Of a stretch of DNA of 24,398 bases, positions 7,485 through 17,415 are shown one piece after another (position 1 is the first letter of the stretch; each line of letters starts with the position of its first letter). This DNA comes from an uncultured Methanosarcinales archaeon (GTDB lineage: Archaea; Nanobdellota; Nanobdellia; Woesearchaeales; 0-14-0-80-44-23): positions 1 to 24,398 of the forward strand of contig CAYQKJ010000001.1 in assembly GCA_964418195.1 (NCBI GenBank), read 5' to 3'. A model generated the notes under the pieces. It had not been told where the DNA came from. It did no database searches and saw only the letters and a list, made by a program, of their open reading frames with translations. The position numbers were made by a program, and so were the translations under genes.

Positions 7485-7557
7485 GCCCTGGTAGCATAGT
7501 AGCTAATGCGTCGCTCTCGTAAAGCGAAGACCGAGGGTGCAACTCCCTCCCGGGGCT
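7485..7557 (+). tRNA. trnT: tRNA-Thr(CGT), intronless, CCA not encoded
   Basis: Full cloverleaf: acceptor GCCCTGG/CCGGGGC, D stem GCAT/ATGC, anticodon stem TCGCT/AGCGA with loop CTCGTAA, T stem GAGGG/CCCTC, discriminator U73. Confidence 0.93.
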
Positions 7558-7808
7558 GTTTCTTAATAAGTTTTTTAATTACTTTCTCGGTTCATTATGT
7601 AATAATGCTTAATGGCAAATATCTTAATGAATATCTTAACGCTGTTTTGTTGTGTTGATATTGTGTCAATCTTAATTTTTAGATAAATCAGGAAAAAAAG
7701 CAACATAAAATATTATATAAGATATACATCATATGATATATTATTAAATAGTTCTTTGCTTATGATTATTTTGTAGCATAATGTTCTTCTTGTTTAAAAA
7801 TCGAAAAA

Positions 7809-7829
7809 TTCCATGGGAAACATCGGGGT
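7809..7829 (+). promoter_or_regulatory. ORB-like Orc1/Cdc6 box with G-string (TTCCATGGGAAACATCGGGGT)
   Basis: Fits the archaeal ORB pattern TTCCA-N3-GAAAC followed by a G run. Confidence 0.65.
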
Positions 7830-7891
7830 GTTGTTTTTTAAAATGGCTGAAAATGGCTTAATTAGCGCTTTAAAGCGATTTTAGCCAAATG

Positions 7892-7912
7892 TTCCATAAG
7901 AAATTATGGGGG
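7892..7912 (+). promoter_or_regulatory. ORB-like box with G-string (TTCCATAAGAAATTATGGGGG)
   Basis: Same pattern as 7809, and 17/18 identical to the minus-strand box at 15510-15527. Confidence 0.68.
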
Positions 7913-7945
7913 CGCGCCTCTTGTAAAATATAGTTTTCTAAAAAA

Positions 7946-7975
7946 TTATTTATAAACATAAGAGTTTATAAATAA
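7946..7975. promoter_or_regulatory. Perfect 12-bp inverted repeat with a TTTATAAA TATA box in each arm, upstream of tbp
   Basis: TTATTTATAAAC-ataaga-GTTTATAAATAA read directly from the sequence. Confidence 0.6.
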
Positions 7976-8047
7976 GTTTGCTCTAACTTCTTTAAAAAGG
8001 AGTTTAAAAAGAAAGTTGATTATTTTAAAAACAAATGGAGGATTAAA

Positions 8048-8602
8048 ATGGAAAAACGCGATATAAAAGTTGTTAATATTGTGGTGAGCAGTTCTTTGAA
8101 GCATGAAATCCCGCTTGAAAAAATGGCTGCAACCTTGAGCAACACTGAATACAATCCAGAGCAGTTCCCTGGTTTGGTCATAAGGATAAAGGATCCTAAG
8201 ACATCTGCACTGATTTTCAGCTCTGGAAACATAGTGTGCACTGGCGCGAGATCAATGGACAAAGTTGATGAGTCAATAAAAAAGATAATAAAGAGTTTGG
8301 AAAAAATTGGAATCAAGATAACCATAAAACCAGAGGTAACAATCCAAAACATAGTTGCTTCAGGCAGTATAGGTGTTGACTTAAACCTGAATGAACTTGC
8401 AATGAAACTGAAAAACACCGAATACGAGCCTGAGCAGTTCCCGGGCTTGGTTTACAAGCTTCCTGAAGCAAAGGCAACCTTCCTCTTGTTCAGCAATGGA
8501 AAGATAGTGTGCACAGGCACAAAATCTGAAGAAGAGGTAAACAAGGCATTAGACAAGCTGATAGAAAATCTGAAAGCAGTTATGAAGCAGAAGAAAAAAT
8601 AA
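8048..8602 (+). CDS. tbp: TATA-box-binding protein
   Basis: Two TBP repeats (EYNPEQFPGLVIRI...LIFSSGNIVCTGA and EYEPEQFPGLVYKL...LLFSNGKIVCTGT), GGAGGA RBS. Confidence 0.98.
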   Translation: MEKRDIKVVNIVVSSSLKHEIPLEKMAATLSNTEYNPEQFPGLVIRIKDPKTSALIFSSGNIVCTGARSMDKVDESIKKIIKSLEKIGIKITIKPEVTIQNIVASGSIGVDLNLNELAMKLKNTEYEPEQFPGLVYKLPEAKATFLLFSNGKIVCTGTKSEEEVNKALDKLIENLKAVMKQKKK

Positions 8603-8848: not shown

Positions 8849-10885
8849 ATGGAGGCCTCGGAGCAAGTAAAGAAATGGATGGAATTCTTGGAAAGGTCTT
8901 ACCAGACCCAAATATTTGAGGCAAACAGGCAGGGTAAAAAATCAATCACTATCGATTTTTCAGAACTTGCAAAGTTCAGCCCAGAGCTGGCAGAAGACCT
9001 TCTTGAGCAGCCAGAAGACACGTTAAAGGCAGGCGAAATTGCAATTGAGCAGTTTGAGACCTTCAACAAAGAAGCTAAGCTCAGGATAAGGCTGGAAAAC
9101 ATTCCTGAATCTCAGCGCATAATGATTAGAAACGTAAGAAGTGAACATCTCAACAAGCTATTGGTAATAGATGGGCTTGTAAGGCAGAAATCTGATGTTA
9201 GGCCTCAAATAACAGCTGCAAAGTTTGAGTGCCCCAGTTGCGGAAATATAATTTCTGTATTTCAAAGCGGAATTTCATTTAAAGAACCTACAAGGTGCAG
9301 CTGCGGCAGACAGGGAAAATTCAAGCTTGTAAGCAAAGAACTGATTGATGCACAGGGGATTGTGTTAGAAGAGATTACTGAACAGCTGGAAGGCGGGGAA
9401 CAGCCTAAAAGGATAAATGTGCTTTTGAAAGATGAACTTGTAAGCCCGTTTACAGAGAAGAGAACAAATGCAGGCAGCAAGATAGAAATTATCGGCTGGG
9501 TAAGGGAAATTCCGATAATACTGAGGTCAGGCAAGCGCTCATTAAAGTTTGATTATGTAATTGAAGCCAATAATGTGTTCTCAAAAGAGGGCACATTTTT
9601 TGAGATGGAAATAAATAAGGAAGATGAAAATCAGATAATTGAACTTTCAAAGGACCCTAAGATATATGAAAAACTTGTTGCTTCTATTGCACCATCAATT
9701 TTCGGCTTTAATGAAGTCAAGGAAGCTTTACTGCTACAGTTGTTCAGTGGGGTGCAAAAAACAAGAAAGGATGGTACAATCTCTAGAGGAGATATCCACG
9801 TGCTGCTGGTCGGAGATCCTGGTTCTGGAAAATCACAAATACTGAAAAGGATAACTATTGTTGCTCCAAAAGGAAGATATATCTCAGGAAAAGGCGTAAG
9901 CGGCGCAGGTGTAACTGCATCTGTTGTAAAAGATGAATTTTTAGGAGGGTGGAGTTTAGAAGCAGGCGCTCTTGTTTTAGCCAATAAGGGAATATGTTGC
10001 ATAGATGAGCTGGACAAGATGAGTCCAGAGGACAGAAGCGCAATGCATGAAGCATTAGAACAGCAGACAGTCTCAATATCAAAAGCAACAATACAAGCCA
10101 CGCTAATGGCAGTAACAACTGTATTAGCAGCAGCAAATCCCAAATTCGGAAGATTTGACCCTTATGAAACAATGGTTGCAAAGCAAATAGACCTTCCTCC
10201 TACACTAATAAACAGGTTTGATCTTATATTTGCAATAAAAGATTTACCTGATAGGAAAAAAGATGAAAAAATGGCCAGGCACATACTTAGCCTGCATCAG
10301 AATCCAGATATGGATCTTGAAATAATACCCACACCTTTGCTCAGAAAATATATGGCATATGCTAAACAAAAATATGATAAACAGAAAATGAAGCCTGAGC
10401 TTACAGAAGCTGCTCTTGACGAGATAAGAAAGTATTATGTGGAATTGCGCTCAGCAGAAGTAGGCGGAGAGGAAGTCAGGAGCATCCCGATCTCTCCAAG
10501 GCAGTTGGATGCTTTGGTTAGAATGGCAGAAGCCTCTGCAAAAATCAGACTTTCGGAAAAGGTCACTAAGAAAGATGCAAGAAGGGCAATAGATCTTTTG
10601 CATTACAGTTTATTACAGGTTGCAAGAGACAAGGAAACAGGAAAAATTGACATAGACATAATATCAACAGGAGTGGCTGCAACAGAAAGAGAAAAAATAA
10701 CAAGGCTAAAGGAGATAATAGAAACACTTGAAGAAAAAGTCGGAAAGACAATACCTATTGAGCAAATACTAAATGCAGCCAGAGAGCAGCAGATAAGTGA
10801 GCCAGAAACAGAAGAAATGATTGAAAAGCTGAAGCGCTCGGGAGATATTTTTGAACCGAAGCACGGCTTCATACAAAAACTCTAA
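8849..10885 (+). CDS. mcm: MCM replicative helicase
   Basis: Zn finger CPSC...CSC, Walker A GDPGSGKSQ, Walker B CCIDELDKM, AAANP motif, Arg finger NRFD, C-terminal winged helix, no intein. Confidence 0.98.
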   Translation: MEASEQVKKWMEFLERSYQTQIFEANRQGKKSITIDFSELAKFSPELAEDLLEQPEDTLKAGEIAIEQFETFNKEAKLRIRLENIPESQRIMIRNVRSEHLNKLLVIDGLVRQKSDVRPQITAAKFECPSCGNIISVFQSGISFKEPTRCSCGRQGKFKLVSKELIDAQGIVLEEITEQLEGGEQPKRINVLLKDELVSPFTEKRTNAGSKIEIIGWVREIPIILRSGKRSLKFDYVIEANNVFSKEGTFFEMEINKEDENQIIELSKDPKIYEKLVASIAPSIFGFNEVKEALLLQLFSGVQKTRKDGTISRGDIHVLLVGDPGSGKSQILKRITIVAPKGRYISGKGVSGAGVTASVVKDEFLGGWSLEAGALVLANKGICCIDELDKMSPEDRSAMHEALEQQTVSISKATIQATLMAVTTVLAAANPKFGRFDPYETMVAKQIDLPPTLINRFDLIFAIKDLPDRKKDEKMARHILSLHQNPDMDLEIIPTPLLRKYMAYAKQKYDKQKMKPELTEAALDEIRKYYVELRSAEVGGEEVRSIPISPRQLDALVRMAEASAKIRLSEKVTKKDARRAIDLLHYSLLQVARDKETGKIDIDIISTGVAATEREKITRLKEIIETLEEKVGKTIPIEQILNAAREQQISEPETEEMIEKLKRSGDIFEPKHGFIQKL

Positions 10886-10992: not shown

Positions 10993-11739
10993 ATGCCCCA
11001 ATTGCAAAATACGGAAAATTCTGAATCAAGTAAAAAAGCAGGAAACTTTATCCCAAATAAAAGACAGACTGCTTACAAAATAAAAATCAATACTCTACTT
11101 GAAGAAAAATATGTAAAGACAGATGGTTGGAACCCGAACTTCATAATTATGAATGGCATTGAGATTTCAAGAGTGAATGTTATAGGTGCTGTAATCTCGA
11201 ATGAGCTTGAGACCTTTGGGAGTGTTGCGTACAGGAATGTTATGATAGATGATGGCACAGGCAAGATAAGCCTGAGAAATTTTGAAAATCCTGAAGCGCT
11301 TTCCGGAATAGAAGTTGCTGATGTTGTGCTGGTCATAGGAAAGCTTAGAGAATATGGTTCTGAAAGATACATACTTTCTGAGATTGTAAAGAAGATAGAA
11401 GATAAAAGATGGATTGAGCAGAGAAATCTGGAAATAGAGTTACTCTTGAGAAAAATCAAAAGGAAAATGCCTGCAAAAGAGAATGAAGAAGCTGTTGTGA
11501 CAGAGGAAGTTGTTGAAAAAGCTGAGAATTTCATAGCAAAAGATGCAGAAATAAAAAATAATTCGCACTCTGTTTATGAGCTAGTTAAGGATTTAGACAA
11601 GGGAGACGGCGCAGACTACGAGGAAGTTCTGAAAAAAGCTAACTTCAATCACATAAAAAATGCAGAAAATGTCATAAGAAAGCTTTTGGAATCAGGAGAA
11701 ATCTTTGAGATAAGAGCTGGAAGGCTGAAAGTGATTTGA
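10993..11739 (+). CDS. RPA32-like OB-fold single-stranded DNA-binding protein with a C-terminal winged helix
   Basis: SRVNVIGAV and IDDGTGKI OB-fold motifs, an acidic linker, and a C-terminal wH ending LLESGEIFEIRAGRLKVI. GGAGG RBS. Confidence 0.8.
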   Translation: MPQLQNTENSESSKKAGNFIPNKRQTAYKIKINTLLEEKYVKTDGWNPNFIIMNGIEISRVNVIGAVISNELETFGSVAYRNVMIDDGTGKISLRNFENPEALSGIEVADVVLVIGKLREYGSERYILSEIVKKIEDKRWIEQRNLEIELLLRKIKRKMPAKENEEAVVTEEVVEKAENFIAKDAEIKNNSHSVYELVKDLDKGDGADYEEVLKKANFNHIKNAENVIRKLLESGEIFEIRAGRLKVI

Positions 11740-15236: not shown

Positions 15237-15312
15237 ACAGTATGCATCAACAGGATGCATCAACAGTATGCATCAACAGGATGCATCAACAGTATGCATC
15301 AACAGGATGCAT
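15237..15312. repeat. Tandem array of six 13-bp units alternating ACAGTATGCATCA and ACAGGATGCATCA (26-bp higher-order period, last unit truncated)
   Basis: Read directly from the sequence. Each unit contains the palindrome ATGCAT. Confidence 0.97.
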
Positions 15313-15422: not shown

Positions 15423-15509
15423 GAATAATTTTGATTTTATGATAAATCTAATTCTTAAATTTAGATTACAAAAATAAAAAAATAGAAAAAAACAAAAAAA
15501 AGACTGAGA

Positions 15510-15527
15510 CCATCATTTCTTATGGAA
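15510..15527 (-). promoter_or_regulatory. ORB-like box (TTCCATAAGAAATGATGG)
   Basis: TTCCA-N3-GAAAT core at the left border of the AT-rich region. Confidence 0.68.
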
Positions 15528-15593
15528 ATATGTTGTTGTTTTGTTGTTATTGAGCATGTTCAATATATTAATAAATTCAGAAATATGCATTTA

Positions 15594-15629
15594 AAAGATA
15601 TATTTAAAGATATATTTAAAAATATATTT
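15594..15629. repeat. Three tandem 12-mers AAA(G/A)ATATATTT in the candidate DNA-unwinding element
   Basis: AAAGATATATTT AAAGATATATTT AAAAATATATTT read directly. Confidence 0.8.
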
Positions 15630-15862
15630 TAAAAAATAAATAATCGAATCTATTTATTATGATTAATATTTTTATTTCTTTATTTATTTTATTATTTTTC
15701 AATATAGAAAAATATAAAAAAGAAAAAAAGTGTTAATAAAATAGATAAAACAATCATTATTTTTAATAATGATGTTTAAAAAATAATCAATTTGAAATAT
15801 TTTTTATAAACTTTATTTTTATTTAATTAAACAGCATAAACATTTTTTTGTTTTTGCTTTTT

Positions 15863-15882
15863 TTCCAAAAGAAGCATGGGTG
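15863..15882 (+). promoter_or_regulatory. ORB-like box (TTCCAAAAGAAGCATGGGTG)
   Basis: TTCCA-N3-GAA core with a G-rich tail, at the right border of the AT-rich region and inverted relative to the 15510 box. Confidence 0.55.
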
Positions 15883-16171
15883 TGAGATCATTTCATTTGC
15901 AATGCAGATTTTGTAAGAAAAAAGAAATTATGAATAGTTTTTTATTTTTTCTTGTCAATAAACTTAAGAATAATATGTATTTAAATAAAAATGAATATAA
16001 CGCTAAAAATTAATGGCATAACCACATCAGGCCCAGATTCCGACGACAAAAAAATAGGAAAGAAAAAATTTTTTAATTTAAATCTCGTAATAGCATCATT
16101 TAAATATCCCTCACGAATGATTGCTCAATCAAAAAGAGATTTTATTTCATATATCTCAGATAACACAAAGC

Positions 16172-16197
16172 TTTAAATACCTTTGTTTCATTTGGAA
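16172..16197. promoter_or_regulatory. cdc6 TATA box (TTTAAATA, 16172-16179) immediately followed by an ORB box (minus strand TTCCAAATGAAACAAAGG, 16180-16197)
   Basis: The TATA box ends 24 bp before the ATG at 16204, and the ORB has the exact TTCCA-N3-GAAAC core. Confidence 0.72.
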
Positions 16198-16203
16198 TTT
16201 TTT

Positions 16204-17415
16204 ATGGTGCAAAAAGAGGGTAGTAACTTCTTCGACAGATTTTTGACAAACAATTCTCTTTTCATAAATAAAAACGTTCTCCAATCGAATTATACTCCAA
16301 ATACAATACCTCACAGAGAAGAGCAGATAAAACAGATTGCTGAAGTTCTTGGTCCTGCGCTCAGGAGGGAAAGGCCATCTAATCTTTTTATCTACGGGCA
16401 GACAGGAACAGGAAAGACTGTTTCTGCAAAGTACATTCAGGAGCAGATGAAAAAACTGAGTTCAGACAAACAGATTCCCCTCAAGATGATTTATTTAAAC
16501 TGCAAACTCAAGAAAATTGCAGATACAGAATACAGGCTAATAGCCCAGCTTGCAAGGGAATTCGGAAAAGAAATACCTGCGACCGGGCTTCCGACAGACG
16601 AAGTCTACAAGATATTTTTCAGCGCTTTAGACAAGGAAAAACAGATTGTAATCTTAATACTTGACGAAATAGATCAATTGGTTAATAAAGCCGGAGAAGA
16701 ACTGCTTTATAATCTAACCAGGATAAATGAAGAACTGAAAAATTCACAGGTTGCTCTTGTAGGTATAACAAATCACATTCCTTTTGTAGACAATCTTGAT
16801 CCAAGAATAAAGAGTTCACTTTCAGAAGAAGAAGTTTTATTCCCGCCCTATAACGCGATTCAGATACAAAACATATTAAGCCAGAGAGCAAAAACAGCCT
16901 TCAAGCCAAATGTAATGGGTGAAGGTGTTATAGAAAAATGCGCAGCATATGCTGCAAGAGAGCACGGCGATGCCAGAAGAGCATTAGAACTGTTAAGAGT
17001 TTCTGGAGAGATTGCTGAGCGCAGAGGCAATTCAAAAGTTGACATAGAGCATGTTGATGAAGCAGATAAGAAAATAGAGAAAGATAGGATATTGGATGTG
17101 GTGGAAGTCCAGCCAAAGCACTTTCAGGCAACTCTTTACTCAATAATTTTGCTCGCTTCAAAGAGAAAATTATCAGCAATATTTACTGGAGAAGTTTATG
17201 AGGTTTACAGGGGAACATGCAGGCAGATAAACTTAAGACCATTAACCCAGAGAAGGGTTTCAGACATTGTGGGGGAATTAGATATGCTGGGCATAATAAA
17301 TGCGAAGGTAATTTCAAAAGGCAGATATGGCAGAACCAGAGAGATTTCTTTTTCAATGCCAAATGAAACCTCTGAGAAAGTAGAGAAAATCCTCAAAGAT
17401 GCTCTTGGGCTATAG
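16204..17415 (+). CDS. cdc6: Orc1/Cdc6 replication initiator
   Basis: PHREEQI, Walker A GQTGTGKT, YLNC, Walker B LILDEID, FPPYNA, GDARRALELLR, wH with ELDMLGII and GRYGRTR. ATG 16204 preferred over TTG 16183. Confidence 0.98.
   Translation: MVQKEGSNFFDRFLTNNSLFINKNVLQSNYTPNTIPHREEQIKQIAEVLGPALRRERPSNLFIYGQTGTGKTVSAKYIQEQMKKLSSDKQIPLKMIYLNCKLKKIADTEYRLIAQLAREFGKEIPATGLPTDEVYKIFFSALDKEKQIVILILDEIDQLVNKAGEELLYNLTRINEELKNSQVALVGITNHIPFVDNLDPRIKSSLSEEEVLFPPYNAIQIQNILSQRAKTAFKPNVMGEGVIEKCAAYAAREHGDARRALELLRVSGEIAERRGNSKVDIEHVDEADKKIEKDRILDVVEVQPKHFQATLYSIILLASKRKLSAIFTGEVYEVYRGTCRQINLRPLTQRRVSDIVGELDMLGIINAKVISKGRYGRTREISFSMPNETSEKVEKILKDALGL

Follow-up and report, generated by a model that had tools for sequence, protein, structure and literature searches.

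The two ORBs that lie upstream of the tbp gene in the archaeal genome analyzed here probably serve the tbp(-mcm-rpa32) promoter as an operator for Orc1/Cdc6 that is confined to the order to which this genome belongs. Their distance and orientation relative to the promoter are fixed and are kept across Woesearchaeota, and for this reason the boxes look like a promoter element that is read by the initiator, and not like a second origin of replication. We also lean, if only slightly, towards a broader proposal: that Orc1/Cdc6 of the Woesearchaeales acts as a sequence-specific transcription factor that controls TBP, MCM and RPA32 through promoter ORBs, which would make it an archaeal counterpart of the DnaA regulon.

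Genomic context of the tbp locus

The window, the complete stretch of 24,398 nucleotides that was analyzed, is contig C1 of a 1.04-Mb MAG (223 contigs, 37% GC, approximately 90% completeness), and the DNA runs behind this MAG are freshwater sediment metagenomes. The closest relatives in the public genome collection are MAGs named Candidatus Woesearchaeota or Nanoarchaeota. The genes for TBP, the replicative helicase MCM and an RPA32-like protein follow each other on the plus strand (Table 1); after them come three unrelated genes, a 1-kb AT-rich intergenic region, orc1/cdc6 and the genes for both PolD subunits. No hidden RNA or small gene was found in the region between tRNA-Thr and tbp (7558-8047), as Rfam and ARAGORN returned only the tRNA itself, and the short ORFs that are present there look like AT-rich noise.

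Table 1. Position of the genes, ORBs and promoter elements in the window.
Feature	Position	Strand	Remarks
tRNA-Thr	7485-7557	+	Rfam/ARAGORN; 490-bp gap between tRNA-Thr and tbp
Distal ORB, TTCCATGGGAAACATCGGGGT	7809-7829	+	PWM 26.0 bits; G-string end directed at tbp
Proximal ORB, TTCCATAAGAAATTATGGGGG	7892-7912	+	PWM 27.4 bits
First consensus TATA box, TTTATAAA	7949-7956	+	37 bp past the end of the proximal ORB
Second consensus TATA box, TTTATAAA	7965-7972	+	53 bp past the ORB; preceded by purine-rich, BRE-like AAGAG
Shine-Dalgarno-like GGAGG	8037-8041	+	6 bp before the tbp ATG; GGGGG or GGAGG at the equivalent place in most relatives
tbp (TATA-binding protein, 184 aa)	8048-8602	+	Pfam TBP, E 5e-63
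mcm (replicative helicase, 678 aa)	8849-10885	+	Pfam MCM, MCM_OB, MCM_lid, MCM_WH_arc; downstream of tbp, same strand
RPA32-like OB-fold protein (248 aa)	10993-11739	+	phmmer against PDB: Pyrococcus RPA32 chains, E 1e-12; Pfam OB match weak
Left ORB of the canonical origin	15507-15527	-	TTCCA end towards the unwinding region
AT-rich unwinding region of the cdc6-linked origin	15528-15862		335 bp, 12.2% GC; 120-bp windows down to 6.7%
Right, degenerate ORB of the canonical origin, TTCCAAAAGAAGCATGGGTGT	15863-15883	+	13.5 bits
ORB over the cdc6 TATA box (16172-16179) and expected transcription start	16177-16197	-	Ends 7 bp before the ATG
orc1/cdc6, presumed reader of the boxes	16204-17415	+	Pfam Cdc6_C, Cdc6_lid, AAA

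Two full ORBs precede tbp

Both boxes upstream of tbp match the dyad core TTCCA-N3-GAAA exactly, and in both a G-string is found 4 bases 3' of the core, which identifies them as full ORBs and not mini-ORBs. Their consensus is identical to that of the boxes beside cdc6 in 30 relatives and in five genomes from sister orders. An earlier note on this DNA had described two boxes in direct orientation, a near-identity of the second box to one beside cdc6, and better G-strings than in the boxes near cdc6, and on each of these points it was accurate. Both boxes are on the plus strand with 83 bp from start to start; the first 18 bases of the proximal box show one mismatch to the minus-strand sequence at 15510-15527 (TTCCATAAGAAATGATGG), a match of 17 out of 18; and the G-strings read GGGGT and GGGGG upstream of tbp, versus GGTCT, GGGTG and GGTAT in the cdc6-side boxes.

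The core TTCCAN3GAAA occurs four times in the window, where 0.53 copies are expected, and none of 100 shuffles reached this number. The complete 1.04-Mb MAG contains 24 copies, with a G-string on only three of them. A genome-wide PWM scan, proposed in the earlier note as a measure of the background rate, identified five sites of at least 20 bits at three loci: two upstream of tbp, one at the origin and two on contig C223. No such site appeared in any of five shuffled genomes. The extended pattern YTCCAN3GAAAN4GG is found 3-7 times per genome in five relatives whose genomes are closed or nearly so, against 0-2 times for a reversed-pattern control, and these matches gather upstream of tbp and beside cdc6. 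The motif, which the earlier note had allowed might prove frequent at random, is thus rare by the scan as well as in the relatives. Motif identity, rarity and conserved orientation and spacing are thus established by the sequences, whereas binding of the initiator to these boxes and the sign of its effect are predictions.

The boxes are conserved across the order and follow tbp

Conservation upstream of tbp, also suggested in the earlier note as a check, was assessed in two sets of loci. The first comprised the tbp loci of 30 genomes of the same order, mostly of different families and with TBP 75-93% identical, 29 of which had usable upstream sequence. The second comprised 72 distinct loci from MAGs named Woesearchaeota or Nanoarchaeota and overlaps in part with the first. 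Boxes were present in 24 of the 29 relatives, spread over different families, with one to four ORBs per locus at 113-366 bp before the tbp start and all on the tbp strand. Likewise, 51 of the 72 loci in the second set have boxes upstream of tbp, and the orientation is almost uniform (62 plus-strand boxes versus a single minus-strand box). At the threshold used, boxes were absent upstream of tbp in 5/29 and 21/72 relatives, respectively.

Thirteen of the 24 box-bearing relatives have a distal box, 78-86 bp upstream of the proximal one. This range also describes the box-to-box distance wherever two or more boxes are present (median 85, n = 15), and corresponds to approximately eight helical turns; part of this conservation could be simple inheritance. 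The upstream neighbor, on the other hand, varies between relatives in identity, strand, size and distance, with tRNA-Thr found in this place only within the family, whereas tbp-mcm is constant. Conservation of the boxes therefore follows tbp and not the flank.

Outside of the order the picture is different. Among 19 genomes that represent sister orders in the class, none has an ORB of at least 12 bits upstream of tbp; mcm comes after tbp in 12 of the 19, and the tandem TATA boxes at tbp are kept. Five of these genomes that were checked carry the same ORB consensus, as inverted pairs, beside their own cdc6, and this makes the absence of ORBs upstream of tbp meaningful. Judged by this distribution, the tbp-ORB module seems to have arisen within the Woesearchaeales-type order.

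The gene downstream of tbp is equally constant within the order: mcm follows tbp on the same strand in 30/30 genomes, with gaps that range from -14 to 495 bp, many of them 60 bp or less or overlapping. Such short or overlapping gaps point to an operon as the ancestral state, and a tbp-mcm operon is likely to be ancestral. In the window, T-runs are present in the 246-bp gap, and a consensus TATA box is missing from it. With a gap of this kind, a separate promoter may drive mcm and rpa32 here, and their co-transcription with tbp in this genome is no more than a prediction.

The boxes are phased to the TATA boxes of tbp

To describe the position of the boxes relative to the promoter, the relatives were aligned without gaps on the proximal box, using TTTAWAWA as the TATA consensus and counting offsets from the end of the box. 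A TATA box is located at +37/+39 in 17 of the 24 relatives and at +53 in 13 of the 24. The offsets in the 72-locus set peak at +23, +37, +39 and +53, of which +53 is the top peak. In most loci, the initiator motif thus keeps a fixed distance from the core promoter, and it is oriented as tbp is.

The ungapped consensus of the second TATA region reads AaaAg.attTataaa, in which the purine-rich AAAAG precedes the TATA sequence, and the second TATA box of the window (7965-7972) is likely the core promoter of tbp. The rest of the interval between box and TATA is poorly conserved in sequence. The distances further out are scattered, with 19-200 bp from TATA to ATG and 91-301 bp from box to ATG. This scatter, set against the fixed box-box and box-TATA distances, indicates that indels are tolerated past the promoter and ahead of the boxes, but not between the boxes or between box and TATA. 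The boxes would be situated approximately 70-190 bp upstream of the predicted start, which is further than many archaeal activator sites and speaks against a role as operator.

The tbp promoter is also characterized by tandem TATA boxes. Relatives have two to five consensus copies, and in the window there are two perfect copies of TTTATAAA that are 16 bp apart. Of the 684 regions upstream of long ORFs that were examined in the MAG, only 4 have two perfect copies, and five matches to TTTAWAWA are found solely at tbp. Tandem TATA boxes also occur upstream of tbp in sister orders without ORBs; they may reflect TBP autoregulation or dual promoters.

The cdc6-linked origin and the cdc6 promoter

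The canonical origin of the window is located beside cdc6 (Table 1). At the left edge of this region (15237-15312) we observed an array of six 13-bp units, in which ATGCATCAACAG is followed alternately by G and T, that are unlike the ORB.

A minus-strand box is found 5-60 bp before the cdc6 start in most relatives. The corresponding box in the window, at 16177-16197, has a weak "G-string" (GGTAT), which is explained by its overlap with the cdc6 TATA box. The position of this box is typical of an autorepressor and implies such a putative role at cdc6; it further implies that the cdc6 transcript is leaderless or has a very short leader.

The tbp site as a possible second origin

The earlier note had considered that the tbp boxes could belong to a second or split origin served by the same initiator. 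In this scenario Orc1, bound to the direct boxes, would load MCM onto the tract at 7558-7808, and the site would function as a second, auxiliary or dormant origin, or as half of one. The ORBs are genuine, with G-strings better than those on the cdc6 side, and their TTCCA ends face an AT-richer tract with the same polarity as at the cdc6 unwinding region. Moreover, known origins include cases in which two direct ORBs lie to the same side of the unwinding region. The AT-rich tract that was reported to the left of the boxes indeed exists, with 18% GC at 7700-7760 and 21.9% at 7558-7808, but comparable values are found in the other intergenic gaps of the window (12.8-30.7%). Its GC content contrasts with the 12.2% of the cdc6 unwinding region, so it is not an exceptional AT-rich element, and none of the 40 lowest-GC windows along the stretch falls in 7558-7808.

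The tract is not conserved either. It measures 251 bp between tRNA-Thr and the distal box in the window, versus approximately 90-137 bp in family members, and the GC content of the 150 bp that precede the distal box in relatives often matches that of the entire locus, or these bases are coding sequence. In several families the upstream ORF ends -8 to 52 bp before a single box, leaving no room for an unwinding element. The boxes also lack an inverted partner: no minus-strand box of at least 12 bits is present within 700 bp upstream, in the window or in relatives. Furthermore, there is no adjacent initiator gene, as cdc6 starts 8.2 kb away, and a complete canonical origin is located only 7.6 kb from the boxes. 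At this distance the tbp and cdc6 sites are too close to be separated by GC skew, which in the window tracks the coding strand.

The relation between the two genes in relatives points in the same direction. The tbp and cdc6 genes share a contig in 27 relatives, at distances of 1.3-28 kb (median approximately 10 kb) and with cdc6 in either orientation, which argues against one split origin. While the distance to cdc6 varies, the distance to the TATA box holds to approximately 2 bp, and this rigid phasing is left unexplained if the boxes are part of an origin. On these grounds the proposal of a second or split origin is not supported, and we consider an origin at this site quite improbable.

One relative (G035, L070:150-1560) speaks for an origin. 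Its tbp and cdc6 genes are divergent and 1.3 kb apart, and the single tbp box adjoins a stretch of 13-14% GC; apart from this box there is no strong box, and a weak one adjoins cdc6. The promoter box in this genome might double as an origin box. More generally, tbp-mcm and cdc6(-polD) form a conserved "replication island"; in 24 of the 27 relatives the transcription of tbp runs towards cdc6 and thus head-on to forks that leave the origin.

Candidate readers of the boxes

Pfam Cdc6_C gives a single match in the MAG, which is the origin-linked orc1/cdc6. A protein search revealed a second, divergent Orc1/Cdc6 paralog on the minus strand of contig C4 (C4:11057-12091; L095:2028-3101). This protein of 357 aa is 32% identical to the origin-linked one and contains the AAA+ domain and the Cdc6 lid domain, whereas its C-terminus is not recognized by Pfam Cdc6_C. 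Its gene is preceded by a 420-bp AT-rich region without ORBs. A paralog of this type is encoded in most genomes of the order, and also in 9 of the 10 sister-order genomes tested. We considered the paralog as an order-specific reader and rejected it as a correlate of the module, as it is class-wide and also occurs where tbp has no ORB.

The suggestion in the earlier note of an Orc1 operator at tbp-mcm-rpa gains comparative support from the orientation of the boxes, their spacing of 78-86 bp, the TATA offsets and the occurrence in many families. Its wording that the "same initiator" is involved needs a caveat, however, as the second, divergent Orc1/Cdc6 paralog is encoded as well. As the boxes are canonical ORBs, the simplest candidate for their reader is the origin-linked Orc1. 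Alternatively, the promoter function could be unchanged and the boxes be read by the C4 paralog as a dedicated transcription factor, similar to Orc1-2 of Sulfolobus, where a non-initiator Orc1 paralog is documented as a global regulator (PMC9738581). The conservation of the paralog in most genomes of the order fits with this, but as it is also found in 9 of 10 sister-order genomes without an ORB at tbp, it does not track the module. In addition, the tbp boxes are canonical ORBs that are almost identical to the origin boxes, and the divergent winged-helix domain of the paralog would argue for another DNA specificity. We therefore regard the paralog as an unlikely reader.

We also compared tbp boxes with origin boxes of the same genome over 10 variable positions. 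The observed value was 5.73 versus 5.35 ± 0.22 after permutation, and 98 of 2000 permutations reached the observed value; the difference is not significant, and one genome adds a self-match.

A model for the proposed operator

In the operator reading, which we favor, the two boxes would be high-affinity Orc1/Cdc6 sites that form the upstream part of the tbp promoter, and ancestrally of the tbp-mcm-rpa32 transcription unit. Each box would be occupied by one initiator monomer, with its AAA+/G-string side towards the promoter, and the approximately eight helical turns between the boxes would place both monomers on the same face of the DNA. Bound 37 and 53 bp before the two TATA boxes, the initiator would modulate the recruitment of TBP, TFB and RNA polymerase. 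As an outcome, the synthesis of the helicase, the single-strand-binding subunit and TBP would be coupled to the amount or the nucleotide state of the initiator. Activation or cell-cycle gating appears more likely than repression at tbp, since the boxes are located upstream of the TATA boxes and not over them, whereas the cdc6 box covers both TATA box and start. The operator reading is further supported by the third ORB locus in the family (C223 and its counterpart in G002), where the boxes are also oriented with the gene and a TATA box is found 52-55 bp past the box end.

Binding of Orc1 could also have another purpose. As an origin-proximal sink or architectural site approximately 10 kb from oriC, comparable to datA, the boxes would act by titration or inactivation of Orc1, or by looping to the origin, with a greater effect on the timing of initiation than on transcription. 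The location of tbp within 1.3-28 kb of cdc6 in the 27 relatives, with tbp directed towards cdc6 in 24 of them, is compatible with this role, and the tbp boxes, with stronger G-strings than the origin boxes of this family, would be filled first. A sink, however, needs neither the strict tbp orientation nor a TATA distance conserved to the base pair, one or two boxes offer little titration capacity, and sister orders do without the boxes. We consider such a function very unlikely, and return to the operator below.

A third ORB locus with iteron-like repeats

The third locus identified in the PWM scan, at C223:878-1005 (G000, L062), contains two tandem full ORBs that are 24 bp apart (starts at 921 and 945) and that sit within eight GTCTCA repeats at multiples of 11 bp. 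The array is located approximately 80 bp upstream of a gene in the same orientation for a protein of approximately 140 aa, with a coiled coil and a winged-helix-like part, and a TATA box is found 52 bp past the second box. The arrangement is kept in a closed genome of the family (G002, L031:1935-2060), where the upstream neighbor differs. This locus appears to be either an iteron-type second origin or another autoregulated promoter that is read by the initiator.

A related organization was observed in two genomes from sister orders (G061, L063:780-1060; G086, L064:780-1060). Here a single full ORB is followed by lineage-specific direct repeats, with several CCGACA-type units in one genome and three copies of GGTTATTCACTTCCT in the other. 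Downstream of these arrays lies a gene for a winged-helix protein with weak DnaD_N/HTH matches. An ORB combined with iterons and a small DNA-binding protein, at a site other than the cdc6 origin, may recur throughout the class.

Comparison with known systems

The boxes upstream of tbp are the same element as the ORBs of Sulfolobus oriC1, Aeropyrum oriC1 and Pyrococcus oriC, which consist of the TTCCA-N3-GAAA dyad and a G-string. The tbp site differs from these archaeal origins in that its boxes are direct only and phased to TATA, with no inverted partner, no exceptional AT region and no initiator gene next to it. The Orc1/Cdc6 initiators of archaea are considered to be specific for origins. 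The Pyrococcus ORB consensus has conserved TTCC and GAA motifs, and purified Pyrococcus Cdc6 shows high affinity for one full ORB by itself (Matsunaga et al.; PMC1904270). Genome-wide ChIP found the Cdc6 protein of Pyrococcus abyssi bound in vivo to essentially only oriC, which the authors contrast with DnaA at promoters (PMC1904270), and a transcriptional role for an initiator-type Orc1 would consequently be without direct precedent.

In full-text literature searches we found no account of a tbp or mcm promoter that contains ORBs, nor any of Woesearchaeota/DPANN origins. If the proposed operator is real, the ORB pair at the tbp-mcm-rpa32 promoter, kept across the order, would be the first archaeal case of an initiator that also regulates genes in the manner of DnaA. 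Replication licensing would then be tied to the expression of the helicase and a general transcription factor, and global transcription capacity to the status of the initiator. For the annotation of DPANN genomes it would mean that an ORB cluster is not automatically an origin.

The promoter motif of Orc1-2 in Sulfolobus is short and is not a full ORB. The boxes described here are canonical full ORBs, and their target would be the tbp-mcm unit instead of damage-response genes. What the systems would have in common is a protein of the Orc1/Cdc6 family at promoters, which in Sulfolobus is a regulator of the DNA-damage response (PMC9738581), and a divergent paralog is present here too. Bacterial DnaA boxes in promoters, as in dnaA autoregulation and the DnaA regulon, follow the same logic, in which the origin motif is reused at replication genes, here including cdc6 itself (16177-16197), and the initiator would have a second role as their transcription factor. 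DnaA belongs to another protein family and another domain of life, however, and the archaeal promoter is of the TBP/TFB type. By analogy, the closest functional counterpart of the proposed operator is the DnaA box in promoters, and the closest within the archaea is Orc1-2 of Sulfolobus.
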